Source of the DNA: a virus
Taxonomy: Duplodnaviria; Heunggongvirae; Uroviricota; Caudoviricetes
Reading direction: 5' to 3' (one strand)
Virus record (IMG/VR): IMGVR_UViG_2548876958_000014
DNA length: 41,963 nucleotides
A program made the translations under genes and the position numbers. Positions 1,720-41,266 of the stretch are shown one piece after another (the first letter of the stretch is position 1; each line of letters starts with the position of its first letter). The notes beneath the pieces were generated by a model. It saw only the letters and a program-made list of their open reading frames with translations, was not told the DNA's origin and did no database searches.

Positions 1720-1720
1720 T

Positions 1721-5225: not shown

Positions 5226-5388
5226 TTTGGGACCCTCGGTTTTTGGACCCTTCTGAGTGGGTCCCATTCAGGGTGCCATAACTCGTAGTTCTCAGCAATT
5301 CTCACTGGACGACAATAGACGTAAAAAAGCCCGCAGAGCTTGTGCTGTGTGGGCTTAGTAGACTTCATTGAACTTCAAACAACTAAAA

Positions 5389-5430
5389 AGTGGTGCTGGC
5401 GGGAGTTGAACCCGCGTCCGAAATTCCTAC
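5389..5430. repeat. Direct repeat of the ssrA 3' end (att core; junction between prophage and neighbouring island)
   Basis: 5394..5430 is identical to 40912..40948 (37 bp); preceding TGGTG also matches but the ssrA GAG is missing, so it is a non-functional 3' fragment of tmRNA. Confidence 0.85.
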
Positions 5431-5624
5431 ATACCATTTTTATTATGGTAAAAACAGTAGATTATGTTTGAAAACAATGTGTTAGTGTTATTTTGTATTT
5501 GCTCGTCTTACGCGTTTTTAATGCTCTGCCGCCAAAGTGCCGCCATTACATCAAGTATCTAGAATAAAATTAGTTAATAAATTACAATTAATATGTTAAT
5601 TGTTCTTGCATTCATAAGTGGGAC

Positions 5625-7361
5625 GTGATGAAAGAAAAAAAATTCGTTAGTGAGCTTTTCCTTGAAAATGGGCAGTTTATTTTAGTCGGTTTGACAGGTC
5701 GAACTGGTTCTGGTTGCACAACAACAGCTAATATTCTTGAAAACGAAAAAACAGTCTTCCCTGATGTAAGTAAATTACAGGGGTTTTACAAGGGATTGGA
5801 TGTCCATCGTTATAATATAGTTAAAAAATTCGCAGAAAATCACTGGGAAAATTTTTACTCAATTAAGGTGAGTGACCTAATCTCAGCGTATCTTCTGATG
5901 TTAACAGTTGAGGAAGCTTCTGAATTCATTCTATCATCTAATAAATCTATCAGTAAAGAGCATTTAGATATTGTATTAACTTTTGGTGTATTCTCAGATA
6001 ATCTCATTTTGACAAGATTTAAAAATGTAATTGAGAATTTGCTTGATCATAATAGTGAATTGAAGCTTGATGAAAAAACGATTAATAAATTTATATCAAT
6101 TTTGAAGTTAGTTAGAAAATTTACTAAAGAATTCAAAGCTGAACTAAATGAGATAAACTCAAATTTATATGTTTCAGCCTATCAGTTAGCAGGTAAGTCA
6201 ATTAGACGTCGTGGGCGTATTGAAGTCGATTTTGAAGATAAAGAGTTTATGCCTAAATCTGTTTTTCATTTGCCGGAAACTATTAATAGGGTTATTAAAT
6301 TAATAAGAAAAAGCAAAAGAGATAACGCATTAATTGTCATAGATGCTATTAGAAATCCATATGAGGCAAAATTTTTTAAGGATAGATATTCTGCATTTCA
6401 TTTAATGTCAATAAATGCCCCAGATGAACATCGAACAAACTATTTGCGGAAACTACATAAGTTTTCAGAAAAGCAGATAGAGGAAATAGATTCTGTAGAG
6501 TCAGGTAAAGGTGATAACTCTTACAAACATCTCACCAATCCAAATGTAACTAAATGTATTGAACTATCAGATATACACATTTTTAACCCAAAAAATGAAT
6601 TTGATAATGACAATATTTTAAAAGCACAATTAGCGTGGTACATCGCACTGATGAAGCATCCTGGTCTGATAACACCTACTGCAATGGAAAGGGTTATGCA
6701 AGTTGCGTATACGGTAAAATTAAACTCTGGCTGTATATCTAGACAGGTGGGAGCTGTAGTAACTGATGGTGATAATTCAATAAAATCAGTTGGTTGGAAT
6801 GATGTTGCCAACGGTCAGATTCCTTGCTCTATGAGATCTCTAGATGGCCTAATGAACGATTTTGATGAAAAAACGTACAGTCATTATGAGAGAAATAATA
6901 GTTCTTTCAGAATTAAAGCTAATGAGAAACTCTTAAATTTTAGGGCGATAGATAAAACTGGTGATATTTATAGAGGCAGGAACTTATCTTATTGTTTTAA
7001 AGATATACATAATGATCTTGATAAAGAGAAAAAAGGTAATCAAGTTCATACACGTGCATTACATGCTGAGGAAAACGCATTTTTGCAACTTGCAAAATAT
7101 GGTGGTATTGGCGTTCTGGGGGGGAAGTTGTATACAACTGCCAGTCCCTGTGAGTTGTGTGCGAAAAAAGCTTATCAGTTAGGTATATCTGAAATTGTAT
7201 TTATTGATCCCTACCCAGGTATAGCTCAAGACCATATTATTAATATAGGTAGTAAGCCACCAAAGTTAATACAATTTAGAGGCGCAATTGGGAAGTCATA
7301 TCACCGACTTTATGAGCAAATTATCCCGATAAAAGATGAGTTAGAATATCTCCTTGAGTAG
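5625..7361 (+). CDS. Fusion protein: N-terminal P-loop nucleotide-kinase-like domain + C-terminal cytidine/dCMP deaminase zinc-binding domain (resembles anti-phage dCTP deaminase architecture)
   Basis: N-terminal GLTGRTGSGCTTTANIL (CoaE/dNK-like P-loop with Cys where Lys is expected); C-terminal HAEENAF and SPCELCAKKA (H-A-E ... P-C-x-x-C deaminase zinc motifs); AT-rich; sits between att repeat and P2-type int. Confidence 0.6.
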   Translation: MMKEKKFVSELFLENGQFILVGLTGRTGSGCTTTANILENEKTVFPDVSKLQGFYKGLDVHRYNIVKKFAENHWENFYSIKVSDLISAYLLMLTVEEASEFILSSNKSISKEHLDIVLTFGVFSDNLILTRFKNVIENLLDHNSELKLDEKTINKFISILKLVRKFTKEFKAELNEINSNLYVSAYQLAGKSIRRRGRIEVDFEDKEFMPKSVFHLPETINRVIKLIRKSKRDNALIVIDAIRNPYEAKFFKDRYSAFHLMSINAPDEHRTNYLRKLHKFSEKQIEEIDSVESGKGDNSYKHLTNPNVTKCIELSDIHIFNPKNEFDNDNILKAQLAWYIALMKHPGLITPTAMERVMQVAYTVKLNSGCISRQVGAVVTDGDNSIKSVGWNDVANGQIPCSMRSLDGLMNDFDEKTYSHYERNNSSFRIKANEKLLNFRAIDKTGDIYRGRNLSYCFKDIHNDLDKEKKGNQVHTRALHAEENAFLQLAKYGGIGVLGGKLYTTASPCELCAKKAYQLGISEIVFIDPYPGIAQDHIINIGSKPPKLIQFRGAIGKSYHRLYEQIIPIKDELEYLLE

Positions 7362-7741: not shown

Positions 7742-8758
7742 CTATCTTAAGTTGCATAAAGGGTTTTTAGTTACCGCATCTTCAAGGTGATCGGGCGAAA
7801 AGTGGGCGTAAATCATCGTCATTTTTATATCGGCATGGCCCAGAATATCGCGCAGCACCAGTATGTTTCCGCCATTCATCATAAAATGGCTGGCGAATGT
7901 ATGACGTAGCACGTGAGTGCATTGGCCCTCTGGCAGCTCGATGCCAGCTCGCTTTACTGCTCGTTCAAAGGCTTTTCTGCACGGGGTGAATAGCTTCCCT
8001 CTGTTCTTGGGGAGTTCGTCATACAGATCTTGAGATATCGGCACGGTGCGGTTTTTCTTACCCTTCGTCTTGGTATAAGTGATGCGGTATTTAGATAACT
8101 GATGGCCCTGCAGGTTTTCAGCTTCACTCCAGCGTGCGCCGGTGGCCAGGCATATTTTTGCAATCAAAAGCAGACTGGGGTTTTGAGAATCAGCGCAGGC
8201 ATCTAGCAGACGTTTAATTTCTTCCGAGGTCAGGAACGCCAGTTCCCCCTCAGCGATTTTAAATGTTGGCAGCCCGGCGAGAGGATTTGGTGCTGACCAG
8301 TGGCCTAGTTTTTTCAATGTGCCGAAAACCGATGATAGGTTACGTTGCTCAAGATTCACCGTGCGTGGTTTTACTGGCGACATTAGTGTGCCGTCTTCGT
8401 TACGAACGTCACCTTTTAACCGTGCTTCGCGGTATTTCGTAAAGTCACCGGCTGTCAGTTCTGAGGCGATGGGGTCGCCTAGACCATTACAGATAATTCT
8501 AAGTTTCGCCATGAGGCGCTTGGGGTCTGCGAGTGTCTGACCATACAGGGAATACCAAAGCTCAATTAATTCTGATAGGCGTCGCCGATCATCCTTTTCA
8601 CCCAACCACGGTTTTTTATTCACTTCTTCCATTGTGAAGCTTTCAAAAGCAATGGCTTCGCCTTTCGTAGCAAATTGCTTACGCACGCGCTTACCATTGC
8701 GTCCATTGGGATAGCACTCACACAACCATTTTCCGTTCGGCTGTTTTCTGATGGTCAT
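7742..8758 (-). CDS. int: P2/186-type tyrosine integrase
   Basis: 338 aa, matching the ~337-aa P2/186 integrases; conserved stretches CLATGARWSEAE, KYRITYTKTKGKKNRTVPIS, VLRHTFASHFMMNGGNILVL, MTMIYAHF; followed by repressor gene in same orientation. Confidence 0.9.
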   Translation of the reverse strand: MTIRKQPNGKWLCECYPNGRNGKRVRKQFATKGEAIAFESFTMEEVNKKPWLGEKDDRRRLSELIELWYSLYGQTLADPKRLMAKLRIICNGLGDPIASELTAGDFTKYREARLKGDVRNEDGTLMSPVKPRTVNLEQRNLSSVFGTLKKLGHWSAPNPLAGLPTFKIAEGELAFLTSEEIKRLLDACADSQNPSLLLIAKICLATGARWSEAENLQGHQLSKYRITYTKTKGKKNRTVPISQDLYDELPKNRGKLFTPCRKAFERAVKRAGIELPEGQCTHVLRHTFASHFMMNGGNILVLRDILGHADIKMTMIYAHFSPDHLEDAVTKNPLCNLR

Positions 8759-11337: not shown

Positions 11338-12191
11338 GCACCATCCTGAAATGGGCGGGAAATAAAACCGCCATTATGTCCGAACTGAAAAAACACCTTC
11401 CTGCTGGCCCGCGACTGGTTGAACCTTTCGCGGGTTCCTGTGCTGTGATGATGGAGACGGATTACCCCAGCTATCTTGTTGCGGATATTAATCCTGATTT
11501 AATCAACCTCTATAAAAAGGTTGCTGCTGATTGTGAGGCATTTATATCTCGTGCCAGAGCTTTATTTGAGGAAGCAAACAGGGAGGTGGCTTATTACAAC
11601 ATAAGGCAGGAGTTTAATTACTCCACTGAAATTACTGATTTCATGAAAGCGGTATATTTTCTGTATCTCAATCGTCATGGTTACCGTGGGTTATGTCGCT
11701 ATAACAAGAGCGGGTATTTCAACATTCCCTACGGTAATTATAAAAATCCGTATTTCCCTGAAAAAGAAATTCGCGCATTTGCAGAGAAAGCCCAGCGGGC
11801 AACGTTTATCTGCGCCAGCTTTGATGAAACGCTGGCGATGTTGAAGGCGGGGGATGTGGTGTATTGCGATCCGCCGTATGACGGCACGTTTTCCGGTTAT
11901 CACACTGACGGCTTCACTGAAGATGACCAGTATCACCTGGCATCCGTTCTTGAACATCGGTCATCAGAAGGACATCCGGTCATTGTTTCTAACAGTGACA
12001 CATCCCTGATCCGTTCGCTGTATCGCAATTTTACTCACCACTACATCAAGGCAAAACGCAGCATCGGCGTAGCAGCTGGTGAGAGTAAATCTGCAACAGA
12101 AATCATCGCTGTTTCTGGGGCGCGCTGCTGGGTGGGATTTGATCCTTCGCGTGGCGTGGATAGTTCTGCCGTGTACGGAGTGCGTGCATGA
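11334..12191 (+). CDS. DNA N6-adenine methyltransferase (Dam-like, orphan)
   Basis: ATG 11334; N-terminal KWAGNK and EPFAGS (SAM-binding) and catalytic DPPY motif; no cognate restriction gene seen. Confidence 0.75.
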
Positions 12192-14602
12192 GCCATGCTG
12201 ATATGAACAACTGCAGCGGCTTTAACGAGGCCGCCGCAGCATTCTCATGGAACAGCCCGAAAAAGGCTATTAACCCTTATCTGGACCCGGCGGAAGTTGC
12301 GCCGGTTTCTGCGCTTTCAAACCTGATCACTCTGTACGCTGCCGATAACGAGCAGGAACAACTGCGCCGTGAGGCACTGAGTGATCAGGTCTGGGAGCGT
12401 TATTTCTTTAATGAATCCCGTGATCCTGTCCAGCGCGAAATGGAGCAGGATAAGCTCATTAGCCGGGCAAAGCTGGCGCATGAGCAGCAGCGTTTTAATC
12501 CAGACATGGTCATTCTGGCAGACGTCAACGCCCAGCCTTCCCATATCAGCAAGCCGCTGATGCAACGTATTGAATACTTCAGCAGCCTGGGCAGGCCAAA
12601 GGCTTATTCCCGCTATTTGCGTGAGACGATTAAGCCATGTCTGGAACGACTGGAGCATGTACGCGAGAGTCAGCTATCCACTTCTTTTCGCTTTATGGCA
12701 AGCCATGAAGGGCTGGACGGCCTGCTGATCCTGCCTGAAATGAGTCAGGATCAGGTGAAACGCCTGTCCACCCTTGTTGCTGCGCATATGAGCATGTGTC
12801 TTGATGCAGCTTGTGGCGATTTGTATGCCACCGATGACGTTAAGCCAGAAGAAATCCGCAAAACATGGGAAAAGGTGGCAGCGGAAACCCTGCGTCTGGA
12901 TGTTATTCCGCCTGCGTTTGAGCAACTCCGTCGGAAAAGAAACCGCCGTAAACCCGTGCCCTATGAACTCATTCCGGGTTCGCTGGCGCGTATGTTGTGT
13001 GCCGACTGGTGGTATCGGAAATTATGGAAGATGCGTTGCGAATGGCGGGAAGAGCAGTTGCGTGCTGTCTGCCTGGTCAGCAAAAAAGCATCCCCCTATG
13101 TCAGCTATGAAGCCGTGATGCATAAACGTGAGCAGCGCCGTAAGTCGCTGGAGTTTTTTCGTTCTCATGAACTGGTGAACGAAGACGGCGACACGCTGGA
13201 TATGGAATATGTGGTAAACGCCAGCAGCAGCAACCCTGCGCATCGCCGCAATGAGATGATGGCCTGTGTTAAAGGTCTGGAGCTTATCGCGGAAATGCGC
13301 GGTGACTGCGCCGTTTTCTACACCATCACCTGTCCGTCACGTTTCCATTCCACGCTAAATAACGGCAGGCCCAACCCAACCTGGACAAATGCGACGGTAA
13401 GACAAAGCAGTGATTATCTGGTCGGCATGTTTGCTGCATTTCGTAAGGCGATGCACAAAGCCGGATTGCGGTGGTATGGCGTGCGGGTGGCTGAGCCGCA
13501 TCATGACGGTACAGTTCACTGGCACCTGTTGTGTTTTATGCGCAAAAAAGACCGCCGCGCCATCACTGCATTACTGCGTAAGTTTGCCATCCGTGAAGAC
13601 CGCGAGGAGCTGGGCAATAACACAGGGCCGCGCTTTAAGTCTGAGTTGATTAACCCGCGCAAAGGAACGCCGACAAGCTACATCGCGAAATACATTAGTA
13701 AGAACATTGACGGGCGTGGTCTGGCTGGCGAGATCAGCAAGGAAACGGGTAAATCCCTGCGTGATAACGCTGAATACGTTAATGCCTGGGCGTCTCTGCA
13801 TCGTGTTCAGCAATTCCGCTTCTTTGGCATTCCGGGGCGTCAGGCTTACCGTGAACTGCGATTGCTGGCTGGTCAGGCGGCAAGGCAACAGGGGGACAAA
13901 AAAGCAGGTGCGCCGGTACTGGATAACCCGCGCCTTGATGCAATCCTGGCTGCTGCTGATGCTGGTTGTTTTGCCACCTACATCATGAAGCAGGGCGGCG
14001 TACTGGTTCCCCGCAAATATCACCTGATCAGAACCGCTTATGAAATCAACGAAGAGCCGACCGCCTATGGCGATCACGGCATTCGTATTTATGGCATCTG
14101 GTCACCCATTGCAGAGGGCAAGATCTGCACTCATGCAGTGAAGTGGAAAATAGTTCGTAAGGCCGTTGACGTTCAGGAGGCGGCAGCCGACCAGGGCGCT
14201 TGCGCCCCTTGGACTCGTGGCAATAACTGTCCCCTTGCTGAAAATTTGAACCAACAAGGGAAAGACAAATTAGCTGATGGGGACTCCAGAACGGATATTA
14301 CCTGTATGAATGACAAGGAGTTGCACGATTACCTGCACAGTATGAGCAAAAAAGAGCGCCGGGAACTGGCTGCAAGGTTACGCCAGGTGAAACCGAAACG
14401 GCGTAAAGACTACAAACAGCGAATTACAGACCATCAGCGACTGCAGCTCGTGTATGAGCTGAGGTCCAGAGGATTTGATGGCAGCGAGAAAGAGGTCGAT
14501 TTACTCCTTCGCGGCGGCAGTATTCCGTCAGGAGCAGGCCTGCGTATCTTCTATCGGAACCAGCGTTTGCAGGAAGATGACAAGTGGCGGAACCTGTATT
14601 AA
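12188..14602 (+). CDS. A: Replication initiation protein gpA (rolling-circle HUH endonuclease)
   Basis: 804 aa; HUH-like [10 protein letters not shown] and Tyr-rich YIAKYISKN catalytic region; P2/186 gene A position. Confidence 0.85.
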
Positions 14603-14755: not shown

Positions 14756-14944
14756 ATGCAGGACTATTTTTTGGAGTCTTTGAAGCTCCAGCGCATTGAT
14801 TTTTTTCTTAAGCTTGTAGCGGCTAGTGAGTGTAGTGATGAAGATAAGGGGCTGGCTCTGCAGTGGGTTTCTGAATTGACTGATGAACTCATGGCAAAAA
14901 TCAGAACCCACGAATACAACCGCTCAATGGATGTCATCAGCTGA
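14756..14944 (+). CDS. Small SOS-controlled protein (possible Tum-like antirepressor; unverified)
   Basis: ATG 14756 preceded by AGGAGG RBS; 62 aa; immediately downstream of LexA box; function inferred from 186 organisation only. Confidence 0.35.
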   Translation: MQDYFLESLKLQRIDFFLKLVAASECSDEDKGLALQWVSELTDELMAKIRTHEYNRSMDVIS

Positions 14945-14954
14945 GGTGACTTTT

Positions 14955-15188
14955 ATGCGCATTGAAATAATGATCGATAAAGAGCAGAAGATTAGCCAGT
15001 CTACCCTGGACGCCCTTGAATCCGAGCTTTACCGCAATCTGCGCTCCCTGTATCCCAAAACGGTAATTCGTATCCGCAAAGGTAGCTCTAACGGTGTGGA
15101 ACTGACCGGACTGCAACAGGACGAAGAAAGAAAACAAGTGATGAAAATTATGCAGAAGGTGTGGGAAGACGACAGCTGGCTGCATTAA
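14955..15188 (+). CDS. dinI: DinI-family protein
   Basis: 78 aa starting MRIEIMIDK; ends WEDDSWLH, resembling the DinI C-terminus; co-transcribed from LexA-box promoter. Confidence 0.7.
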   Translation: MRIEIMIDKEQKISQSTLDALESELYRNLRSLYPKTVIRIRKGSSNGVELTGLQQDEERKQVMKIMQKVWEDDSWLH

Positions 15189-18265: not shown

Positions 18266-19300
18266 TTAAATTTTTAGTTCGTAGGTTGAAAAATTTATAA
18301 TTCTATCGTTTAACCAATTATTTATTTCTAGAAACATTTTTTGTAGAGGCAGTAGCTCATTTCGTACAAATACTGTGCTTGCCTTTTCGATATCCCCAAA
18401 CCCCCCGACATTATTAGGCATTATCCCCATCATTTGTGGCGGCACACGATGCGCCGCCATCATGTCGTCCCGGCTCACGTTCTTGATATTCAGGAACTCA
18501 TCCTTCGCCGCCACTTCTGACAACGGGATAATCTGAAGCCCGTCCTTTTTACCGTTAGGCGAGTACATAAACAGGTTACGGAAGTTACCAGGACCTTTGG
18601 CGCTTTTCATCGCATTGCGGAGGTTGTTCACATCCTCCTGGTTCTGCGCAGCATCGGTCATGTACATGATGAAGCCTGCATGACTGCCGTTAATGTAATA
18701 CTTGCGGCGGAACAGCGTGGCGGACTCGTTGAGCAGAGCTGACGGAATGGCAGAAAGATAACCGGGCAGGCCGTAGATCTCCTGGTTGATGTCCGGTTCC
18801 ATCAGATGAAAAATGCTGCCTTTCGTGAACTGATACGGCTGGGTTGTCATACCGTATTGCACAAACCAGTAGGTATCCAGGTCTAACCCGCGTCGGGTGT
18901 ATTTTGCCAGCGCAGGCTCAAGGGCGATAACTTCACCGAATCGGTTCGTGCGTTTCTCCAGGTAGGCGTTACCAAATACCAGATAGTCCTGCACAAAACG
19001 CGAAAAAGCCTGCTGGCTGAGCAGCGGATGAGGGATATAGGTACTGGTCAGAATGTTGCACTTTACTGCAATCGGGGAACTGTGATGCACGGCAGCGCGG
19101 AAGGTGCGCGCCAGTCCGTCAAAGCTGACGGGCGGCTCATACCAACGGTCCATCTGTACGCATTCCACATAGTCCAGCAGTTCTCGGCGATCCAGAACAG
19201 GAACGGGATCGCCGAAGCTGAATGCTTCGGCTGTAGTCTGGCTTTTAAGCTGGATCTGTTTCGTCGCCGCAGCGCGGTTCTTCTTACTCTTTCCCATCAA
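18266..19300 (-). CDS. Q: Portal protein gpQ
   Basis: 344 aa (the length of P2 Q); precedes terminase ATPase gene on same strand, as in P2. Confidence 0.85.
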   Translation of the reverse strand: MMGKSKKNRAAATKQIQLKSQTTAEAFSFGDPVPVLDRRELLDYVECVQMDRWYEPPVSFDGLARTFRAAVHHSSPIAVKCNILTSTYIPHPLLSQQAFSRFVQDYLVFGNAYLEKRTNRFGEVIALEPALAKYTRRGLDLDTYWFVQYGMTTQPYQFTKGSIFHLMEPDINQEIYGLPGYLSAIPSALLNESATLFRRKYYINGSHAGFIMYMTDAAQNQEDVNNLRNAMKSAKGPGNFRNLFMYSPNGKKDGLQIIPLSEVAAKDEFLNIKNVSRDDMMAAHRVPPQMMGIMPNNVGGFGDIEKASTVFVRNELLPLQKMFLEINNWLNDRIINFSTYELKI

Positions 19301-21063
19301 AAAATCTCCACAATATTGCTGGTATTGGCGGATTCGCCCTGCAGCGGTTCGTTAAACAGTGCGTGCATTGTTGCCCAGGCCAGATCGGCGTGGCTGGCTT
19401 CTTCGCTGCGGCTGGCTTCATAGGTCGGGCGGTTGCCGCTGGCGGTGGTTGCGCGACGGATTGCCATGAATGACTGCGCAATGTCGGTGTGCCCGGCGTC
19501 AAACTCCAGACGGCGGTGGCTGATAATGTCGTAGGCCTTGAGTACCAGGGCGTTTTTAACATTGGGGTTGTAGACAAACTCCCGGACGGCAGGAAAGAAC
19601 GCTTTCACGTTCTCATAAACCCCGTGACCAACGCCGGTTGAGTCGATACCGATATAGGTCACGTTGTACTGTTCGGTGAGTTTTTTGATGGCGTCAGCCT
19701 GGGCGCGGAAGTCCATCCCGCGCCACTGGTGACGCTCAAGAATGCGGAACTTACCACCCGGCACGGCTGGCGGAGCCACCACCACGCATCCGGCACTGTC
19801 GCCGTTCTGCGTACCTTTTGCCGGGTCATAACCGATCCACACTTCGCGCCAGCCAAACGGGCGCAGGGCCAGTGCATGAAAGTCGGTCCAGACTTCCCAG
19901 CTGTCCACCATGCACGCCTGCAGTTCGCTGAGCGGGAACACGGACGCGAGATCGTCCACGAACTCGCACATCAGCAGGTTCTGGTATTCGTCCGGGCTGT
20001 ACTCCAAGCGTAGCTGGTCGAGGTCGAACAGGTTACAGCCGCCGCGCACCGCATCTTCCACGGTGACTATCTGGCGGTATTGCCCGTCTGCGCACAGCAG
20101 GCCGGGGGCCAGATTGCTGTGGGACAGGTCGATGTCCACCTTGTCAGCTTTGTTGCGTCCACGGTTGAACAGCGCACCGGACCAGAACGGATAAGCACTG
20201 TGGGTCAGGCTGGATGGCGTGGAAAAATAGGTTTGTCGCCATTTTTTGTGAATAGCCATCCCGGAAGCCACTTTGCGCAGCTCCTGGAATTTCGGTATCC
20301 AGAAATATTCATCCAGATACAGGTTGCCGTGATAACTCTGGGCCGTGCGGGCATTGGTGCCGAGGAAGTAAAGCGTAGCTCCGTTAGGAAGCACCATCGG
20401 ATCGCCTTTTAGCTCCACCTCGACTTCTTTGGCGAAGTCGATGATGTATTGTTTAAAGACGTGGGCCTGAGCCTTACTGGCAGAAAGGAAAATCTGGTTA
20501 CGTCCGGTAAGCAGGGCGTCAATCAGGGCTTCACGGGCAAAATAGAAGGTCGCGCCGATCTGGCGTGACTTCAGCAGGTTGCGGATGCGGTTGGTTTTTC
20601 CGGCTTCCCACCAGTGGCGCTGGTAGTTGAACATGGAGGAATGGAAGATTTCTTCCAGCTTCTCAATCTGCTCATCGGTGAAAACATTCTTTTCCGGCTG
20701 ACGGCGTGGGCCTTTATTGCGGTTGGCGACGTTAGGGTTTAAGTCGGCTTCGTTGCCGCCATTGTTAAACTTGCCGATCCGCGCGTGGCGCTCAGACTGG
20801 CGCGCCAGCAGGTCAATCTCTTTGAAATCTTTCCCTTCTTTGTGCTCCTTCATAATGAGCTGGCAGTAGCGTGCGGCGGTGGTGAGCTGCATCTGATCCA
20901 GCGGCCCATAGTCACCCCACTTGTCGCGTTTTTTCCAGCTGTGAACGGTTGCAACTTTCTCGCCCAGCATTTCAGCAATGCGGGCTACGCGGTATCCCTG
21001 AAAGTACAGCAGCATGGCCTGCCGACGGGGATCGAGATCTGCGGGTGTCAGTGTGGTGTTCAT
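19297..21063 (-). CDS. P: Terminase large (ATPase) subunit gpP
   Basis: 588 aa; N-terminal HTH-like region, Walker-A-like RQIGATFYF context, nuclease C-terminal region; overlaps Q start by 4 bp. Confidence 0.9.
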   Translation of the reverse strand: MNTTLTPADLDPRRQAMLLYFQGYRVARIAEMLGEKVATVHSWKKRDKWGDYGPLDQMQLTTAARYCQLIMKEHKEGKDFKEIDLLARQSERHARIGKFNNGGNEADLNPNVANRNKGPRRQPEKNVFTDEQIEKLEEIFHSSMFNYQRHWWEAGKTNRIRNLLKSRQIGATFYFAREALIDALLTGRNQIFLSASKAQAHVFKQYIIDFAKEVEVELKGDPMVLPNGATLYFLGTNARTAQSYHGNLYLDEYFWIPKFQELRKVASGMAIHKKWRQTYFSTPSSLTHSAYPFWSGALFNRGRNKADKVDIDLSHSNLAPGLLCADGQYRQIVTVEDAVRGGCNLFDLDQLRLEYSPDEYQNLLMCEFVDDLASVFPLSELQACMVDSWEVWTDFHALALRPFGWREVWIGYDPAKGTQNGDSAGCVVVAPPAVPGGKFRILERHQWRGMDFRAQADAIKKLTEQYNVTYIGIDSTGVGHGVYENVKAFFPAVREFVYNPNVKNALVLKAYDIISHRRLEFDAGHTDIAQSFMAIRRATTASGNRPTYEASRSEEASHADLAWATMHALFNEPLQGESANTSNIVEIF

Positions 21064-27659: not shown

Positions 27660-28015
27660 CGCTTTATAGCGGGATGAACAATACCAGTGGCAAAGTCATT
27701 ACTGATATTGACCATCTGCGCCAGTCGGTGCGGGACATTCTGCTGACGCCGCAGGGTAGCCGCATTGCTCGCCGTGAATATGGTTCCCTGCTGTCGGCAC
27801 TGATAGACCAGCCACAAAATCCGGCGTTACGCCTGCAGGTCATGTCGGCAGTGTATGTGGCGCTGAGTCGCTGGGAGCCACGGCTGACGCTGGATTCCAT
27901 CACCATTAACAGCAATTTTGACGGTTCAATGGTGGTGGGACTGACCGGGCGGCGTAATAACGGTGTGCCTGTTTCCCTTTCCGTATCAACAGGAGCAGAG
28001 AATGGCAGTGATTGA
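27656..28015 (+). CDS. W: Baseplate wedge protein gpW
   Basis: 119 aa; start overlaps V stop. Confidence 0.75.
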   Translation: MTLYSGMNNTSGKVITDIDHLRQSVRDILLTPQGSRIARREYGSLLSALIDQPQNPALRLQVMSAVYVALSRWEPRLTLDSITINSNFDGSMVVGLTGRRNNGVPVSLSVSTGAENGSD

Positions 28016-28910
28016 CCTTTCGCAGTTGCCTGCGCCGCAGATTGTCGATGTGCCGGACTTTGAGACGTTGCTTGCCGAACGCAAGGCCGAATTTGTTGCG
28101 CTTCATCCGAAAGATGAGCAGGAAGCCGTGATCCGCACGCTGGAACTGGAATCTGAACCCGTCACCAAATTGCTGCAGGAGAACGCTTACCGTGAGTTGC
28201 TTCTGCGCCAGCGCATTAACGAAGCCGCGCAGGCGGTGATGGTGGCTTACGCGATGGGCGGCGATCTTGACCAGCTCGCTGCCAACTACAACGTGAAACG
28301 CCTGACGGTGACGCCTGCTGATAATGACGCTGTGCCACCCGTTGCGGCTGTGATGGAAAGCGATGAAGCGTTACGCCTGCGTGTGCCCGCAGCCTTTGAA
28401 GGGCTTTCTGTTGCGGGGCCAACTGCCGCTTATGAATTTCATGCCCGAAGTGCCGACGGTCGGGTGGCGGATGCCAGTGCAACCAGTCCGGCACCTGCAG
28501 AGGTGGTACTGACTGTCCTGAGCCGTGAAGGCGACGGAACAGCAGAAAAAGATTTGCTGGATGTGGTGGAGAAAGCCCTGAACAGTGAGAATGTCCGCCC
28601 GGTGGCTGACCGTCTGACGGTTCGCAGCGCAGAAATCATCCCGTACCGTGTGGAAGCCACCATTTTTCTTTATCCGGGACCGGAAGCAGAGCCGGTAATG
28701 GCAGCGGCAAAAGTCAGCCTGCAGAGGTACATCGCCAGTCAGACGCGGCTCGGTCGGGATATTCGCCGTAGTGCTATTTTTGCCGCGCTGCATGTTGAGG
28801 GTGTTCAACGTGTGGAACTGGCTTCTCCGCTGGCGGATGTGGTTCTGAACAAAACGCAGGCGGCATCATGTACGCAGTGGAGCGTGACCAACGGAGGAAC
28901 GGATGAATAG
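28002..28910 (+). CDS. J: Baseplate protein gpJ
   Basis: ATG 28002 (MAVIDLSQLPAP) with AGGAG RBS; 302 aa, the length of P2 J. Confidence 0.8.
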   Translation: MAVIDLSQLPAPQIVDVPDFETLLAERKAEFVALHPKDEQEAVIRTLELESEPVTKLLQENAYRELLLRQRINEAAQAVMVAYAMGGDLDQLAANYNVKRLTVTPADNDAVPPVAAVMESDEALRLRVPAAFEGLSVAGPTAAYEFHARSADGRVADASATSPAPAEVVLTVLSREGDGTAEKDLLDVVEKALNSENVRPVADRLTVRSAEIIPYRVEATIFLYPGPEAEPVMAAAKVSLQRYIASQTRLGRDIRRSAIFAALHVEGVQRVELASPLADVVLNKTQAASCTQWSVTNGGTDE

Positions 28911-29508
28911 TCTGCTGCCACCGGGTTCAACTTCACTGGAGCGCCGACTGGCGCAGACCTGTAGCGGGATTTCTGATCTGCAGGTGCCGCTGCGTGACTT
29001 GTGGAATCCGGCAACCTGTCCGATCAGTTTCCTGCCTTATCTCGCCTGGGCGTTCTCTGTGGATCGCTGGGACGAGGGCTGGACAGAAAGCGTCAAGCGC
29101 CAGGTGGTGAAGGATGCTTTTTATATTCATCAGCATAAAGGGACCACCAGTGCCGTGCGGCGGGTGGTGGAGCCGTTCGGCTTTCTGATCCGCATTATTG
29201 AGTGGTGGCAGACCGGAGAGGCACCGGGCACGTTTCGTCTGGATATCGGCGTGCAGGACCAGGGCATCACTGAAGATACCTATCTGGAACTTGAGCGACT
29301 GATAAGCGATGCCAAACCATGTAGCCGTCACATGATCGGCATGTCCATCAACCTGCAGACCAGCGGCCCGCATTGGGTGGGAGCCGCCAGCTATCTTGGC
29401 GAAGAAATCACGATCTATCCGTATATCAACGAAACAATTATTTCCGGCGGCACCGCGCATGAAGGCGGGGCGGTCCATGTTATTGACACAATGAGAGTGA
29501 ATCCATGA
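28903..29508 (+). CDS. I: Baseplate/tail protein gpI
   Basis: 201 aa; overlaps J stop and H start. Confidence 0.75.
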   Translation: MNSLLPPGSTSLERRLAQTCSGISDLQVPLRDLWNPATCPISFLPYLAWAFSVDRWDEGWTESVKRQVVKDAFYIHQHKGTTSAVRRVVEPFGFLIRIIEWWQTGEAPGTFRLDIGVQDQGITEDTYLELERLISDAKPCSRHMIGMSINLQTSGPHWVGAASYLGEEITIYPYINETIISGGTAHEGGAVHVIDTMRVNP

Positions 29509-31019
29509 GCACAAAATTTTATACCCTGCTGACGGATATTGGCGCGGCGAAACTTGCCAGCGCCGCCGCGCTCGGTGTGCCGCTAAAAATTACCCATATG
29601 GCGGTCGGCGATGGTGGCGGAGTATTGCCAACGCCAGACGCAAAGCAGACTGCACTGGTAAATGAGAAACGCCGGGCTGCGCTGAATATGCTCTATATCG
29701 ACCCGCAGAACAGCAGCCAGATTATTGCCGAACAGGTGATCCCTGAAAACGAGGGCGGTTGGTGGATTCGTGAAGTGGGCCTGTTTGATGAGTCCGGGGC
29801 ATTGATTGCCGTGGGCAACTGCCCGGAAAGCTATAAGCCGCAACTGGCTGAAGGCAGCGGGCGCACTCAGACCGTGCGCATGGTGCTGATTACCAGCAGC
29901 ACGGACAATATCACCCTGAAAATCGACCCTGCTGTAGTGCTGGCAACCCGCAAGTATGTGGATGACAAGGCACTGGAGCTGAAGGTGTACGCGGATGATC
30001 AGATGGCAAAACATCTTGCCGCACCGGACCCGCATTCACAGTATGCACCCAAAGAAAGTCCGACGTTTACCGGAACCCCCAAAGCGCCAACGCCAGCAGC
30101 AGGGAATAACACCACGCAGATTGCGACCACCGCGTTTGTTCAGGCGGCTCTGACGGCTCTTATTAATGGTGCGCCAGCCACGCTGGACACGCTGAAAGAA
30201 ATAGCCGCAGCCATTAACAATGATCCGAAATTCAGTACCACCATTAACAATGCACTGGCACTGAAAGCGCCGCTATCGAGTCCGGCACTCACCGGAACGC
30301 CAACAGCCCCCACGGCGGCGCAGTCGGTCAACAATACACAGATTGCCACTACGGCTTTTGTGAAATCGGCGATTGCGGCAATGGTGGGTTCTGCACCTGC
30401 GGCACTGGATACACTGAACGAACTGGCAGCGGCGCTGGGGAATGATCCGAACTTTGCCACGACAATGCTGAATGCGCTGGCAGGTAAACAACCGCTGGAC
30501 AATACGCTGACTAATTTGAGTGGAAAGGATGTAGCTGGTCTTCTCACATACCTTGGTTTGGGAGAAGGCTCTGCATTACCTGTTGGTGTGCCTGTTCCGT
30601 GGCCTTCAGTCACACCGCCAACAGGCTGGCTGAAATGCAACGGTGCGGCTTTTTCTGCTGAAGAATACCCGGAACTGGCAAAGGCTTACCCGACAAATAA
30701 ATTGCCTGATTTACGTGGTGAGTTTATGCGTGGCTGGGATGATGGAAGAGGCATTGATAGTGGTAGGGGGATTCTCACTGCGCAATCTCATGGTATGCCG
30801 TCTATTTCAGGAGTGTTTAATGGTCTTTTTGCTGTTAAACAAACAAATGGTTTAGGTGGTGTTTCTGTAGCAAAAAGTACAAATGCTGAAACTTTATCTA
30901 CTTCATCTGGATCGGGTTCCGTGTTTGATTACACGTTTAATGTCAGCGGTTCGACTCCGGTATCACCAGAACTTCGTCCGCGTAATATTGCATTTAACTA
31001 TATCGTGAGGGCCGCATAA
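29505..31019 (+). CDS. H: Tail fibre protein gpH (constant N-terminus, invertible C-terminus)
   Basis: 504 aa; internal ~70-aa tandem repeats (TGTP...NNTQIATTAFV...LDTL...NDP.F); inversion crossover site at codons ~346-354. Confidence 0.8.
   Translation: MSTKFYTLLTDIGAAKLASAAALGVPLKITHMAVGDGGGVLPTPDAKQTALVNEKRRAALNMLYIDPQNSSQIIAEQVIPENEGGWWIREVGLFDESGALIAVGNCPESYKPQLAEGSGRTQTVRMVLITSSTDNITLKIDPAVVLATRKYVDDKALELKVYADDQMAKHLAAPDPHSQYAPKESPTFTGTPKAPTPAAGNNTTQIATTAFVQAALTALINGAPATLDTLKEIAAAINNDPKFSTTINNALALKAPLSSPALTGTPTAPTAAQSVNNTQIATTAFVKSAIAAMVGSAPAALDTLNELAAALGNDPNFATTMLNALAGKQPLDNTLTNLSGKDVAGLLTYLGLGEGSALPVGVPVPWPSVTPPTGWLKCNGAAFSAEEYPELAKAYPTNKLPDLRGEFMRGWDDGRGIDSGRGILTAQSHGMPSISGVFNGLFAVKQTNGLGGVSVAKSTNAETLSTSSGSGSVFDYTFNVSGSTPVSPELRPRNIAFNYIVRAA
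30541..30566. repeat. Left inversion crossover site (hix/gix-like) inside gpH
   Basis: TTCTCACATACCTTGGTTTGGGAGAA; near-perfect inverted repeat of 32357..32382; resembles Hin/Gin sites (TT-TC-AAACC-TGGTTT-GA-AA). Confidence 0.65.
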
Positions 31020-31621
31020 TGGATAACGCTGCATTAAATAGCGAGTTTATTGCTACAAAGGCGGGAAATATTACCGTCTATAACTATGATGGCGAAACAC
31101 GGGAATATATTTCCACATCAAATGAATATATCGCTGTCGGCGTCGGTATCCCGGCAAGTTCCTGTTTAGATGCTCCTGGCTCATATAAAGCTGGTTATGC
31201 AATTTGCCGTTCTGCAGATTTTAACTCATGGGAATATGTGCCAGACCATCGCGGTGAAACGGTCTATAGCACTGAAACAGGAGAATCAAAAGAAATCACA
31301 GCTCCGGGTGATTACCCTAAAAATACAACCACTATCGCCCCATTAACGCCATACGATAAATGGGATGGTGAGAAATGGGTGACGGATACCGAGGCACAGC
31401 ATAGCGCCGCAGTAGATGCAGCAGAAGCACAGCGCCAGTCGCTGATTGATACTGCAATGGCTTCCATCAGTCTGATTCAACTGAAATTGCAGGCCGGACG
31501 TAAACTGACGCAGGCAGAAACAACCCGGCTTAACGCTGTGCTGGATTACATTGACGCGGTGACGGCAACAGATACCAGCACCGCGCCGGATGTCATCTGG
31601 CCTGAACTGCCGGAGGCGTAG
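31019..31621 (+). CDS. G: Tail fibre assembly protein (gpG/Tfa), active orientation
   Basis: 200 aa; C-terminal DVIWPELPEA typical of Tfa proteins; follows H. Confidence 0.7.
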   Translation: MDNAALNSEFIATKAGNITVYNYDGETREYISTSNEYIAVGVGIPASSCLDAPGSYKAGYAICRSADFNSWEYVPDHRGETVYSTETGESKEITAPGDYPKNTTTIAPLTPYDKWDGEKWVTDTEAQHSAAVDAAEAQRQSLIDTAMASISLIQLKLQAGRKLTQAETTRLNAVLDYIDAVTATDTSTAPDVIWPELPEA

Positions 31622-32036
31622 GCCATTCAATATCTGGCGCACCGGAAGTATCGACCAGTTCCAGTGCGTCCAGATAATCCAGCCACAAATTATATTGCGC
31701 CAGTTCCTCACCTTTCAGACGACCAATTGATGCTTTACCTGGCCATTGTTTACTGTTGATGTATTCGTTGGCCTGATTAATCAATTGCTGCTTTTTAGTT
31801 TCGGCTGATGCAATTTGCTCTTCACGTGTTGGTGGAGGAATATCTGCCCATGCAGGCAGTCCATCTTCTCCGACACATCTGTATTTTCCTTCTGGTGGTG
31901 TGTCATAGAAATATTCCCTGAAAATTACTTCGTCTATATCAACACCTTTTTCTTCAGGCCATTCACCTTTTTCAACATAAAGAGACTGAAGTTCGTAAGG
32001 ATATGCCAGGTTGTTTACGTACAGATATTTCATCAT
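31593..32036 (-). CDS. Alternative tail fibre assembly protein (Tfa'), inverted orientation
   Basis: 147 aa on opposite strand; C-terminus DIEWPTPP parallels gpG; inside invertible segment. Confidence 0.65.
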   Translation of the reverse strand: MMKYLYVNNLAYPYELQSLYVEKGEWPEEKGVDIDEVIFREYFYDTPPEGKYRCVGEDGLPAWADIPPPTREEQIASAETKKQQLINQANEYINSKQWPGKASIGRLKGEELAQYNLWLDYLDALELVDTSGAPDIEWPTPPAVQAR

Positions 32037-32410
32037 TACCAGCCCTTAGCGAAAAACGCACCACCTTCAAGACCATAATTGCAGTGAGCTATGAAGCCGG
32101 TAGTGCTCCAGTTGGTCGCCCCCCACATATTCCCGCCCCCGAAACCACCATCGCACACAATTACAATGCCCGGTGTCTGTGTAAATGGAATCGGGAATGA
32201 AACATTGGCGGATACAGGCCCGTGTTCACCAGGAAAACTAATTCGTCCCCACTGTTCAATTGAACCATCTGGCATTTTTCGCCAGCCTGAACCTGATGCA
32301 TATGATGACATATCAGGTATCTGATTTTCCCCTGTTCCCACATTCCGTTTTGCCGCTTCTCCCAAACCAACGTTTATGAAAATGCAGAGATAACGGCTAA
32401 CTGGCATCAT
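32036..32410 (-). CDS. Alternative tail fibre C-terminal cassette (promoterless; expressed only after inversion)
   Basis: 124-aa ORF whose N-terminal part (VGLGEAA) spans the right crossover site, mirroring LGLGEG in gpH. Confidence 0.6.
32357..32382. repeat. Right inversion crossover site
   Basis: TTCTCCCAAACCAACGTTTATGAAAA; reverse complement matches 30541..30566 at ~21 of 26 positions; 50 bp upstream of invertase gene. Confidence 0.65.
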
Positions 32411-32431
32411 CCCCGGTTTTTATTCAGGGGA

Positions 32432-33004
32432 TTGATCATGCTTATTGGCTATGTACGCGTGTCAACAAATGACCAGAACACCGATTTGCAACGTAATGCA
32501 CTGAACTGCGCGGGATGTGAGCGGATTTTTGAGGACAAAATCAGTGGCACTAAGTCCGACAGACCGGGACTGAAAAAACTGCTCAGGACATTATCGGCAG
32601 GTGACACTCTGGTTGTCTGGAAGCTGGACAGGTTGGGGCGCAGTATGCGGCATCTCGTTACGCTGATAGAAGAGCTGCGCCAGCGTGGCGTGAATTTCCG
32701 AAGCCTGACTGACAGTATTGATACCAGTACCCCAATGGGCCGTTTCTTTTTTCATGTCATGGGGGCCCTGGCTGAAATGGAGCGCGAACTGATAGTTGAA
32801 CGTACCAGGGCGGGGCTTGCTGCAGCTCGCGCCAAAGGCAGAGTAGGTGGACGCCGTCCTAAGTTGACCACCGAACAGTGGGCACAGATTGGACGTTTAC
32901 TCGAGGCCGGAGAATCAAGACAGCGTATTGCACTGATTTTTGATGTAGGTGTTTCCACAATTTATAGAAAATTTCCGGCGAATGAGAGCAATGAATCGCC
33001 CTGA
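32432..33004 (+). CDS. Serine recombinase DNA invertase (Hin/Gin/Pin/Cin family)
   Basis: 190 aa; N-terminus MLIGYVRVSTNDQ with catalytic Ser; C-terminal HTH; close resemblance to Hin/Gin. Confidence 0.9.
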   Translation: MIMLIGYVRVSTNDQNTDLQRNALNCAGCERIFEDKISGTKSDRPGLKKLLRTLSAGDTLVVWKLDRLGRSMRHLVTLIEELRQRGVNFRSLTDSIDTSTPMGRFFFHVMGALAEMERELIVERTRAGLAAARAKGRVGGRRPKLTTEQWAQIGRLLEAGESRQRIALIFDVGVSTIYRKFPANESNESP

Positions 33005-33146
33005 ATCAGCATTATTTTGATTTTTCCTGCAAGCGGACAAATACCGTTATTTTGTGTGAATAACGGTACAACTGCGCTTAGCTGTTTGTCAGGCACAATC
33101 ACTTCAACATAGGGCGAAGCCTAATCCAATCAGGAGGTTCGCCACT

Positions 33147-34319
33147 ATGGCTCAGGATTACCACCACGGGGTGCGCGTTGTTGAAGTCAACGAAGGCACC
33201 CGATCCATTACCACGGTGAGCACCGCCATCGTGGGTATGGTCTGCACGGGCGATGATGCCGATGCAAAAATGTTTCCTCTTAATAAACCCGTGCTGATCA
33301 CTGATGTGCTGACTGCCAGCGGTAAAGCGGGTGAGTCCGGCACGCTGGCACGTTCGCTGGATGCCATCGCTGACCAGGCAAAACCCGTGACCGTTGTTGT
33401 GCGTGTGCCGCAGGGTGAAACGGAAGAAGAAACCACGACCAATATCATCGGCGCAGTGACTGCTGAAGGTAAAAAAACAGGCATGAAAGCCCTGTTATCT
33501 GCCCAGACACAGCTCGGCGTTAAACCGCGCATTCTCGGCGTGCCAGGTCACGATAACAAAGCCGTTGCTACTGAGTTGCTGAGTGTGGCGCAAAGCCTGC
33601 GTGGGTTTGCTTACCTGTCAGCGTATGGCTGCAAGACGGTGCAGGAGGCGATCACTTACCGTGAAAACTTCAGCCAGCGCGAAGGAATGCTGATCTGGCC
33701 CGACTTTACTGGCTGGGACACGGTGCTGAATGCCGAAGCAACGGCATATGCCACCGCCCGTGCGCTTGGTCTGCGTGCCAAAATTGATGAGCAGACCGGA
33801 TGGCACAAAAGCCTGTCCAACGTGGGCGTGAACGGTGTCACCGGAATTTCTGCAGATGTGTTCTGGGATCTGCAGGACCCGGCAACCGATGCAGGTCTGC
33901 TGAACCAGAACGACGTCACCACGCTTGTGCGTAAAGACGGTTTCCGCTTCTGGGGTTCCCGCTGCCTGAGTGATGACCCGCTCTTTGCCTTCGAAAACTA
34001 CACCCGCACGGCGCAGGTGCTGACGGACACAATGGCAGAAGCGCACATGTGGGCAGTGGACAAACCGCTGAACCCGTCGCTGGCCCGCGACATTATCGAA
34101 GGTATCCGCGCCAAAATGCGCAGCCTGGTCAGTCAGGGGTATCTCATTGGTGGTGATTGCTGGCTGGATGAGTCGGTGAACGATAAAGACACGCTGAAAG
34201 CCGGGAAGCTCACCATTGACTACGACTACACGCCAGTGCCGCCACTTGAAAACCTGATGCTGCGTCAGCGCATCACCGATCAGTACCTGGTGAATTTTGC
34301 CAGCCAGGGCAGCGCGTAA
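33147..34319 (+). CDS. FI: Tail sheath protein gpFI
   Basis: 390 aa; position and length as P2 FI. Confidence 0.85.
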
Positions 34320-34328
34320 GGGGACAAC

Positions 34329-34844
34329 ATGGCTTTACCACGCAAATTAAAACATCTGAACCTGTTTAACGACGGGAACAACTGGCAGGGGATCGTTGAG
34401 TCGCTGACACTGCCGAAATTCACCCGCAAATATGAGAAGTATCGCGGCGGCGGAATGCCGGGTGCAGTGGATGTGGATCTGGGACTTGATGACAGTGCTC
34501 TGGACACAGAATTTTCCATTGGTGGTACTGAACTGCTGCTGTTTAAGCAGATGGGCAAAGCCACTGTGGATGGCATCCAGTTGCGCTTTACCGGCTCTAT
34601 CCAGCGTGACGATACCGGAGAAGTGCAGGCCGTAGAGCTTGTAGTGCGTGGGCGTCACAAAGAAGTGGATTCCGGTGAGTGGAAGACGGGCGAAAGCAAC
34701 ACCACCAAAGTGACCAGCACTAACAGCTACGCGAAGCTGACAATCAATGGTGAGGTGCTCTATGAAGTGGACCTCATCAACATGGTGGAAATCGTGGACG
34801 GTGTGGACCTGATGGAAGCACACCGTAACGCCCTCGGCCTCTGA
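34329..34844 (+). CDS. FII: Tail tube protein gpFII
   Basis: 171 aa immediately after sheath. Confidence 0.85.
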   Translation: MALPRKLKHLNLFNDGNNWQGIVESLTLPKFTRKYEKYRGGGMPGAVDVDLGLDDSALDTEFSIGGTELLLFKQMGKATVDGIQLRFTGSIQRDDTGEVQAVELVVRGRHKEVDSGEWKTGESNTTKVTSTNSYAKLTINGEVLYEVDLINMVEIVDGVDLMEAHRNALGL

Positions 34845-40903: not shown

Positions 40904-41266
40904 TGGTGGAGCTGGCGGGAGTTGAACCCGCGTCCGAAATTCCTACATCCTCGGTACTACATGCTTAGTCAGTCTTTACATTCGCTTGCCAGCTGCGGAC
41001 GGACACGCCACTAACAAACTAGCCTGATTAAGTTTTAACGCTTCAACCCCAGGCAGGGCTTCCACGCGATCTCTTTTGGGTTTGACCTCTCTTGATCCCC
41101 GTCCTAAGAGCGGAGGCTAGGGAGAGAGGGCTCTAAGCAGGTTATTAAGCTGCTAAAGCGTAGTTTTCGTCGTTTGCGACTATTTTTTGCGGCTTTTTAC
41201 GAGGCCAACCGCCCCTCGGCATGCACCTTGGGTTTCGCAAATCCCGTCGAATCCAGAATCAGCCCC
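40904..41266 (-). ncRNA. ssrA: tmRNA (SsrA), complete
   Basis: Reverse complement begins GGGGCTGATTCTGGATTCGACGGG and ends ...GGTTCAACTCCCGCCAGCTCCACCA; contains tag ORF GCAAACGACGAAAACTACGCTTTAGCAGCTTAA (ANDENYALAA); 363 nt. Confidence 0.95.

Follow-up and report, generated by a model that had tools for sequence, protein, structure and literature searches.

Introduction

Among the DNA switches of phages, exchange of tail-fibre tips by inversion is an ordinary and well-known one, and the same arrangement is already known from the G segment of Mu, the C segment of P1, the P segment of e14, Fels-2, and the P2-like prophages of EPEC and ST131. In Mu, the virions made in the G(+) and G(-) orientations differ in host range. 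For P2-like prophages, sequencing and PCR have demonstrated inversion in EPEC (PMC4272514) and in ST131 (bioRxiv 10.1101/2022.05.07.487787).

Here we analyse a locus in IMG/VR record IMGVR_UViG_2548876958_000014, a stretch of 41,963 nucleotides (the window, below). We conclude, with a probability of roughly 0.9, that a P2-like prophage integrated at ssrA of E. coli carries here an invertible tail-fibre switch with two states, of the Gin/Pin (DNA-invertase) type. The window contains all the structural elements of such a switch in intact form, with the enhancer as a putative one.

Results

Organization of the locus

The tail genes of the window encode Baseplate_J, Tail_P2_I, Phage_tail_fib and Phage_sheath_1 domains in the P2-type order (V-W-J-I-H-G-FI-FII in P2-like phages), and the closest phage records are Peduoviridae (Cartapus, genus Elveevirus). 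An Rfam scan gave the tmRNA as its only match. The features of the switch are as follows.

29505-31019, + strand: gpH tail fibre, whole; Phage_tail_fib N-terminus, Collar C-terminus
29505..30552, + strand: gpH constant N-terminal part, aa 1-349, expressed in either orientation; Pfam Phage_tail_fib 6.5e-65
30541..30566, + strand: left site L (pix/gix-like), inside gpH; 12-bp half-site, TT core at 30553-30554, 12-bp half-site; the homologous site is an inversion end-point in O25b:H4 relatives
30555..31019, + strand: gpH variable tip 1, now fused to the constant part and expressed; Pfam Collar 2.4e-14
31019..31621, + strand: Tfa, tail-fibre assembly chaperone for tip 1 (TfaE-like); Pfam Caudo_TAP 6.3e-33; 92% amino acid identity to e14 TfaE
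31593..32036, - strand: Tfa', alternative chaperone in the silent orientation; Pfam Caudo_TAP 4.3e-33; 99.3% identical to the expressed Tfa of Ecol_542
32036..32368, - strand: variable tip 2 in the silent orientation; Pfam Gp53-like_C 1.3e-07; frame continuous across the right site, within an ATG-initiated ORF that extends to 32410
32357..32382, - strand: right site R; AA core at 32369-32370 on the + strand (TT on the - strand); 26/26 identical to the right pix site of e14
32438..33004, + strand: serine DNA invertase of the Gin/Cin/Pin/Hin family, 188 aa, intact, Ser9 present; Pfam Resolvase 2.3e-53, HTH_7 1.5e-15
32456..32527, + strand: putative recombinational enhancer (sis) in the 5' part of the invertase gene; its position corresponds by homology to the annotated P1 enhancer, cin nt 19-90

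Two inverted sites with identical cores

The sequence of L is TTCTCACATACC-TT-GGTTTGGGAGAA, and the reverse complement of R is TTTTCATAAACG-TT-GGTTTGGGAGAA. This pair ranks first among the inverted repeats in 28000-34500. Aligned base by base, the sites agree at 22 of 26 positions; the inner half-site and core (14 bp), including the central dinucleotide, match fully, and the four differing positions fall in the outer half-sites. The sequence-only reading had located and oriented both sites correctly; R is an imperfect inverted copy of L. Both sites have the 12-2-12 bp layout of the family in inverted orientation, with identical cores that make religation possible, and their half-sites fit TTnTCnnAAACC, as do those of P1 cixL and Mu gixL/R. 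The inner repeat, TTGGTTTGGGAGAAGG, is the published repeat of the e14 P segment, at which PinE and PinQ invert DNA, and inversion at the e14 right pix site has been shown experimentally (PMC12529663). As had also been read from the window, GLGE is encoded in frame at both sites, within LGLGE in gpH and VGLGE on the minus strand.

A search of the window with the inner half-site, allowing up to three mismatches, found no third site beyond L and R; one further match, at 4557, was at chance level. Because only two sites were found in the window, we rejected a multi-site system of the shufflon-like or Min-like kind, and the locus is a simple two-state switch.

Of 500 mononucleotide shuffles, 6 also reached an exact inverted repeat of 15 nt with its arms separated by 0.2-3 kb. 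The length of the repeat is by itself only moderately unusual, and the case therefore rests on the position of the sites, the family consensus and their behaviour in relatives. That such a repeat arises in about 1% of shuffles of the region is what could be said for a chance inverted repeat that happens to lie beside an unrelated resolvase gene, with no inversion taking place. Against this, the sites lie exactly at the junction of the constant and variable parts of the fibre, with the reading frame kept, they match known pix, cix and gix sites, and the homologous site is an inversion end-point in relatives. We consider a chance origin hardly credible, and indeed already refuted by the end-points in relatives and by the match of the flipped fusion to annotated fibres described below.

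Alternative fibre tips and both orientations among relatives

The constant part of gpH is 96-99.8% identical in relatives, irrespective of the tip that comes after it. Tip 1 shows 59% amino acid identity to e14 StfE, and its 5' and 3' parts have ~90-92% nucleotide identity to e14 stfE'. Its central ~200 bp was unmatched; that it might be unique sequence was rejected, since it is rare but present in 21 of 5426 E. coli genomes. Downstream, the 3' end of Tfa' overlaps Tfa by 29 nt. The ORFs and Pfam matches bear out the gene content proposed for the interval, with the gpH C-terminus and Tfa expressed and Tfa' and an alternative tip opposed to them.

The reading frame of the alternative tip had been proposed to cross the right site, and in silico this holds: a flip at the central dinucleotides gives an in-frame gpH' of 460 aa, followed directly by Tfa'. 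Over its full length, the flipped gpH' has 99.8% identity to the gpH that is annotated, and expressed, in the E. coli lysogens Ecol_542 and MS10860, and Tfa' is 99.3% identical to the Tfa expressed in both. The locus has a constant N-terminus outside the segment and two opposed cassettes of tip plus Tfa/U, with both tips in frame with the sites, as in a tail-fibre switch. A simple scan for sigma-70-like promoters gave no convincing promoter for the silent cassette, with hits at chance level.

Among E. coli records from complete genomes that cover at least 80% of the query, 119 have the window's orientation and 94 are flipped. In strain O25b:H4 (GCF_001874485.1), whose prophage is ~92% identical to that of the window, the chromosomal and extrachromosomal prophage copies are inverted between the homologous sites and are 100% identical to each other outside them. 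Both orientations are thus found in nature among relatives, with the inversion end-points of a relative at the homologous sites; the window is a single assembled sequence in which one orientation is visible. The intact parts, the in-frame fusion, the orientation records and the O25b:H4 copies all support the original proposal of an invertible tail-fibre switch as in Mu G and P1 C.

An intact invertase gene with a putative enhancer

The invertase gene lies just after the right site, as the sequence-only reading had it, and carries no frameshift. Its start is likely ATG 32438, which gives the 188-aa protein annotated in relatives, and not TTG 32432. The protein aligns over its whole length with Gin (structures 3UJ3 and 4M6F, E 1e-92) and contains both Ser9 and the MLIGYVRVSTNDQ motif, and the Hin DNA-binding domain 1HCR matches it at 6.8e-09. 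It has the composition of a small serine recombinase, an N-terminal catalytic domain with a nucleophilic serine and a C-terminal HTH. The earlier label "Hin-type" is right at the level of the family; among characterised invertases, the closest are those of e14 (Pin) and Fels-2 (87% amino acid identity), followed by Cin (79%) and Gin (77%).

The putative enhancer is 78% identical to that of P1 and 88% identical to the e14 sequence. It contains two Fis-type G-N13-C cores, at 32459-32473 and 32508-32522 (core definition from PMC4784862). The Mu, e14 and Fels-2 genes carry both cores at matching positions, with conservation of position in four of the five genes, and Fis would be expected to bind here. 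In the register used here the two cores are 49 bp apart, start to start, whereas the corresponding spacing for Hin is 48 bp. Third-position identity in the enhancer region, compared with the rest of the invertase gene, was for example 16/23 vs 62/100 against pin and 10/19 vs 42/96 against cin. This is only slightly and inconsistently higher, and we do not claim a dual constraint on the region.

A simple scan of the stretch between the right site and the invertase ATG found no sigma-70-like promoter, with hits at chance level. The lack of a clear promoter in such a scan would fit a switch that is frozen, one in which the parts are present but there is no meaningful inversion rate in this lysogen, for example because the invertase is unexpressed or the prophage defective, so that the silent cassette would serve only as a reservoir for homologous exchange. 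The invertase is frameshifted in some relatives (p13P477T-2), and the one orientation visible in the window would also agree with this. On the other hand, the window has an intact invertase gene and two intact sites, neither tip and neither chaperone gene is disrupted, the enhancer region is conserved, and the orientations are about equally frequent among relatives. Moreover, identical sites are open to action in trans by further invertases of the Pin family in the cell (PMC12529663). A frozen state is, in our view, highly improbable. We infer that the Gin/Pin-type switch does invert in this particular lysogen, that it depends on Fis, and that its two orientations differ in host range, the last because the tip domains are unrelated (Collar vs Gp53-like_C) and because of the Mu G(+)/G(-) precedent.

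A leader ORF upstream of the silent tip

Tip 2 sits in an ATG-initiated ORF that runs on the minus strand from 32410 down to 32036 and starts outside the right site; a stand-alone product from it is possible. The alternative tip had been described as promoterless, and this is correct insofar as no promoter-like site was found near 32410, but it does not account for the ORF, which has an ATG of its own beyond the right site.

The ORF suggests an added function in the lysogen. The flip state would set which tip is joined to the leader ORF (ATG 32410), and an orphan tip made in the lysogen might block the adsorption of other phages, by analogy with e14, whose StfE2 is reported to block T2 adsorption (PMC12529663). 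An ATG-initiated ORF across the right site is present here and annotated in all relatives fetched, and e14 has an ORF of the same type, stfE, with a similar leader. Against such a function, no promoter-like site lies on the minus strand near 32410 and the invertase gene contains only a weak 9/12 match, GGGG stands immediately before ATGATG and so gives a poor Shine-Dalgarno spacing, and tip 2 is unrelated to the e14 StfP tip. The leader is perhaps conserved only through its overlap with the site and the invertase control region. We think this added function unlikely, and its fuller form, in which the silent-position tip on the leader ORF would be made without induction and act as a phase-variable superinfection defence of an intact P2-like prophage, slightly less likely still. 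Such a defence could also be flipped in trans by other Pin-family invertases of the cell, because its sites are identical to the e14 pix sites.

Discussion

For the two-state tail-fibre switch, we propose the following mechanism. Dimers of the invertase (32438-33004) would bind the two 26-bp sites, and host Fis on the enhancer inside the invertase's own gene would promote assembly of the invertasome. Ser9 would next cleave the two sites at their central TT/AA dinucleotide, one pair of subunits would rotate by 180 degrees, and religation would leave the 1816 bp between the cores turned over. In the sequenced orientation the late operon would give gpH(1-349) with the Collar-domain tip, plus the TfaE-like chaperone; after inversion it would give the same 349 residues with the Gp53-like tip, followed directly by the 147-aa Tfa'. 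A population of lysogens would be predicted to produce two kinds of virion with different receptor specificity.

For annotation, this means that the second Tfa and the 124-aa "gp53-like" ORF are not genes in their own right but together form the silent half of a switch, and that two alternative fibre proteins should be recorded for the prophage, one of 504 aa and one of 460 aa. Host-range prediction for the prophage should take in both tips, and assemblies of such lysogens may merge a mixed population into one orientation. The current understanding of DNA invertases and tail-fibre switching is unchanged by the present finding.

The e14 P segment of E. coli K-12, with PinE, is similar in many parts: the right site is identical at all 26 positions, the inner repeat of 14-16 bp is shared, the invertase and Tfa are 87% and 92% identical to PinE and TfaE, and tip 1 is related to StfE. 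The layout is also shared, with tip, Tfa, convergent Tfa' (29-nt overlap) and tip' in order and the invertase outside the segment. In contrast, e14 is defective and lambdoid, and its StfP is a short stub; here the switch lies within the gpH fibre of a P2-like prophage that appears to be complete. Tip 2 has no blastp match to the StfP tip, and the relation of Tfa' to TfaP is only partial (59% across the C-terminal 92 residues of Tfa').

With Mu G/Gin and P1 C/Cin the locus shares a constant fibre N-terminus, two opposed tip-plus-chaperone cassettes, 26-bp sites and an invertase outside the segment; their enhancer lies in the 5' end of the invertase gene, as does the putative one here. At 1.8 kb the segment is smaller than that of Mu (about 3 kb) or P1 (4.2 kb), and the core dinucleotide is TT here and in P1 but TC in Mu. 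The Mu and P1 fibre tips are unrelated to those of the window at the DNA level, and the carrier here is a P2-like phage. The Salmonella Hin/hix flagellar switch has in common the invertase family and 26-bp sites, and its Fis-dependent enhancer lies within the invertase gene (PMC3798978), as does the putative one here. Hin, however, lies inside its own segment and flips a promoter, while here the invertase lies outside and coding 3' ends are exchanged.

The P2-like (Peduoviridae) group is closest. Fels-2, Escherichia phages Cartapus and 500465-1, and the ST131 and EPEC P2-like prophages carry the invertase between G and FI, and the group shares the gene order J-I-H-Tfa / Tfa'-tip' / invertase-FI-FII and the same site positions. 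In the E. coli relatives the constant part and the invertase are 95-99.8% identical to those of the window, and the difference from the group lies in the combination of cassettes only. The closest relative, Ecol_542, expresses the cassette that is silent in the window and carries a different second cassette.

Organization of the tail-fibre module and its chromosomal setting

The sequence-only reading had set an expressed gpH C-terminus (tip 1) and its chaperone Tfa against a silent chaperone, Tfa', and an alternative tip (tip 2) on the opposite strand, and the ORFs and domains we find fit this arrangement.

Features of the module and of the attachment gene
29505-31019, gpH, P2-type fibre N-terminal domain and C-terminal Collar domain
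30541-30566, plus strand, left site, TTCTCACATACC-TT-GGTTTGGGAGAA
31019-31621, plus strand, Tfa, Caudo_TAP chaperone
31593-32036, minus strand, Tfa', Caudo_TAP chaperone, opposite to Tfa
32036-32410, minus strand, tip 2 ORF, Gp53-like_C tip domain
32357-32382, right site, reverse complement TTTTCATAAACG-TT-GGTTTGGGAGAA
32438-33004, invertase, 188 aa, Resolvase and HTH_7 domains
40904-41266, minus strand, tmRNA ssrA

The frame of the tip 2 ORF does pass through the right site, as had been claimed. The convergent Tfa and Tfa' genes overlap by 29 nt (31593-31621), both chaperone C-termini being encoded by opposite strands of one DNA stretch, and an identical 29-nt overlap occurs in e14 tfaP/tfaE and in every relative fetched.

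Baseplate genes J and I lie upstream of the module and sheath FI and tube FII downstream, which is the P2 gene order, and the most similar phage records belong to Peduoviridae and have a 'DNA invertase' annotated at this location. The flanking DNA at 40800-41963 matches E. coli smpB-ssrA with 100% identity, from which we take the window to be E. coli chromosome with a P2-like prophage at ssrA. An exact 38-bp direct repeat of the ssrA 3' end (5395-5432 and 40911-40948) flanks the 35.5-kb insertion and is the att duplication of this prophage. Immediately beyond the left repeat, the minus strand encodes a second integrase, of P4 type (3996-5267), and its presence suggests tandem islands at ssrA. 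The left end (1-3469) holds two large ORFs that belong to the neighbouring island, one of 572 aa that runs off the window start and one of 588 aa with a Response_reg_2 domain; neither had a PADLOC match.

Recombination sites

Compared base by base, with the right site reverse-complemented, the two 26-bp sites align as an inverted pair, as had been proposed, but at 22 of 26 positions rather than as exact copies. The central TT and the entire inner half-site (14 bp) are the same in both, and all 4 mismatches fall in the outer half-sites. This pair is the top inverted repeat of 28000-34500, and the window contains no third site with 3 or fewer mismatches. Shuffling produced an inverted repeat of 15 nt without mismatch, at an arm spacing of 0.2-3 kb, in 6 of 500 trials; repeat length by itself is only moderately significant, and the case therefore rests on context. 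GLGE is encoded in frame at both sites, in agreement with the sequence-only reading. The half-sites match the pattern of P1 cixL and Mu gixL/R (TTnTCnnAAACC), the right site agrees with the right-hand pix site of e14 at 26 of 26 positions, and the inner repeat TTGGTTTGGGAGAAGG is the exact repeat of the e14 P segment at which inversion by PinE and PinQ has been demonstrated (PMC12529663).

Inversion of the segment in silico and in relatives

The proposal that inversion swaps the fibre tip and its chaperone held both in silico and among relatives. In-silico inversion of 30555-32368 yields, in frame, an unbroken 460-aa fibre (gpH') followed directly by Tfa'. Over its full length this hypothetical gpH' shares 99.8% identity with gpH as annotated in E. 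coli Ecol_542 and MS10860, and Tfa' is 99.3% identical to the expressed Tfa of Ecol_542. Complete E. coli genomes were searched with two queries, the region in its sequenced orientation and its flipped version. With a minimum coverage of 80% at a single collinear location, 119 records had the orientation of the window and 94 the flipped one; because half of the query is the segment itself, no record can meet both searches.

One O25b:H4 genome (GCF_001874485.1) has two copies, one as a prophage in the chromosome and one as an extrachromosomal record of 29.5 kb. Their flanks on either side show 100% identity, and the stretch between the flanks is 99.9% identical but inverted. The end-points fall inside homologues of both 26-bp sites, and the outer half-sites are unmoved. 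Since the copies differ by an inversion with end-points in the sites, inversion at homologous sites is a fact in this ~92%-identical relative, and we infer that the window's own molecule inverts as well.

Invertase, putative enhancer and proposed mechanism

The gene directly after the switch (32438-33004) had been called a serine invertase, and its product indeed aligns over its full length with Mu Gin (PDB 3UJ3, 4M6F; E about 1e-92), with the catalytic Ser9 kept. Among characterized relatives, e14 Pin and the invertase of Fels-2 are nearest (87% amino acid identity each), followed by P1 Cin (79%) and Gin (77%). A simple scan for sigma-70-like sites between the right site and the ATG found no invertase promoter. 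The Cin enhancer is annotated at cin nt 19-90 in the P1 record, and the homologous stretch here, a putative enhancer at 32456-32527, is 78% identical to that of P1 and 88% to that of e14. It holds two 15-bp G-N13-C cores (32459-32473 and 32508-32522), both with counterparts at matching places in the genes of Mu, e14 and Fels-2. A 15-bp core bounded by G/C is the accepted signature of a Fis site (PMC4784862), and Fis would be expected to bind at these cores.

In this invertase family, dimers bound to two sites assemble an invertasome on supercoiled DNA together with enhancer-bound Fis; there, Ser9 cuts the 2-bp core and subunit rotation swaps the strands, identical cores being needed for religation (PMC3798978). 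The cores in the window are identical (TT in the left site; the right site reads AA on the plus strand). We propose that dimers of the window's invertase on both sites, with Fis on the enhancer, would form such an invertasome, and that Ser9 cleavage at the TT/AA core, subunit rotation and religation would turn the segment over. The fibre tip and its matched chaperone would be exchanged behind a constant 349-residue N-terminus, and a lysogen population could release phage with one of two receptor-binding tips. By analogy with Mu and P1, and given the unrelated tip domains, flipping would be expected to change host range.

ORF crossing the right site

Outside the right site begins a short leader that has an ATG of its own (32369-32410, minus strand), and therefore the silent tip, whichever one it is, always lies within an ATG-initiated ORF. 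Relatives keep such an ORF, and so does e14 in the form of stfE, which has a similar leader. Because the ORF is conserved and the e14 equivalent with the other tip, StfE2, is reported to block T2 adsorption (PMC12529663), a function in the lysogen is conceivable. It is unlikely here, because translation signals are weak (poor Shine-Dalgarno spacing before the leader ATG), the promoter scan gave no match for the leader ORF, and tip 2 is unrelated to the e14 StfP tip.

Defence genes in the same prophage

The prophage also carries a Lamassu anti-phage system (15498-18225) made up of LmuA (Cap4-nuclease domain; PADLOC 4e-143) and LmuB (SMC-like ATPase; PADLOC 6e-253). On one side lies a large ORF of 804 aa (12188-14602; replication gene by position) and on the other are minus-strand ORFs (18266-21063) whose position suggests portal and terminase genes; a DinI-like gene is nearby (14883-15188). 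A 578-aa ORF (5625-7361) has the left att repeat on one side and the prophage integrase (7742-8758) on the other, and is followed by a very AT-rich 380-bp spacer. It encodes a cytidine/dCMP deaminase domain and strongly matches the defence model 'dCTPase' of PADLOC (1e-145).

Comparison with known systems

The e14 P segment is closest to this module, sharing the right site, the convergent chaperone overlap and a StfE-like tip; the window's Tfa is 92% identical to e14 TfaE. Here the switch is built into gpH of a P2-like prophage; Fels-2, Cartapus, 500465-1 and many E. coli prophages have this arrangement too. Experiments with EPEC E2348/69 (PMC4272514) and with ST131 isolates (bioRxiv 10.1101/2022.05.07.487787) have shown inversion in their P2-like prophages. 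The 37-kb circular 'plasmid' record p13P477T-2 (CP019275.1) is a P2-like phage genome. In it the cassette of tip 1 and Tfa known from the window is flipped into the silent position (4461-5019) and the invertase is frameshifted, making it probably an example of a locked switch.

The central ~200 bp of tip 1 (30760-30966) are rare, being present in 21 of 5426 complete E. coli genomes, had no match in any of the 12 related loci compared, and probably form a hypervariable receptor-contact patch; they are sometimes found in another prophage of the same strain. The closest relative, Ecol_542, is 99.8% identical in the constant part and 99.7% in the invertase region, and expresses the window's silent cassette, whereas its partner cassette differs from that of the window. 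Such cassette differences among relatives are normal mosaicism. The switch as a whole is already known, and only the cassette combination is particular to the window.
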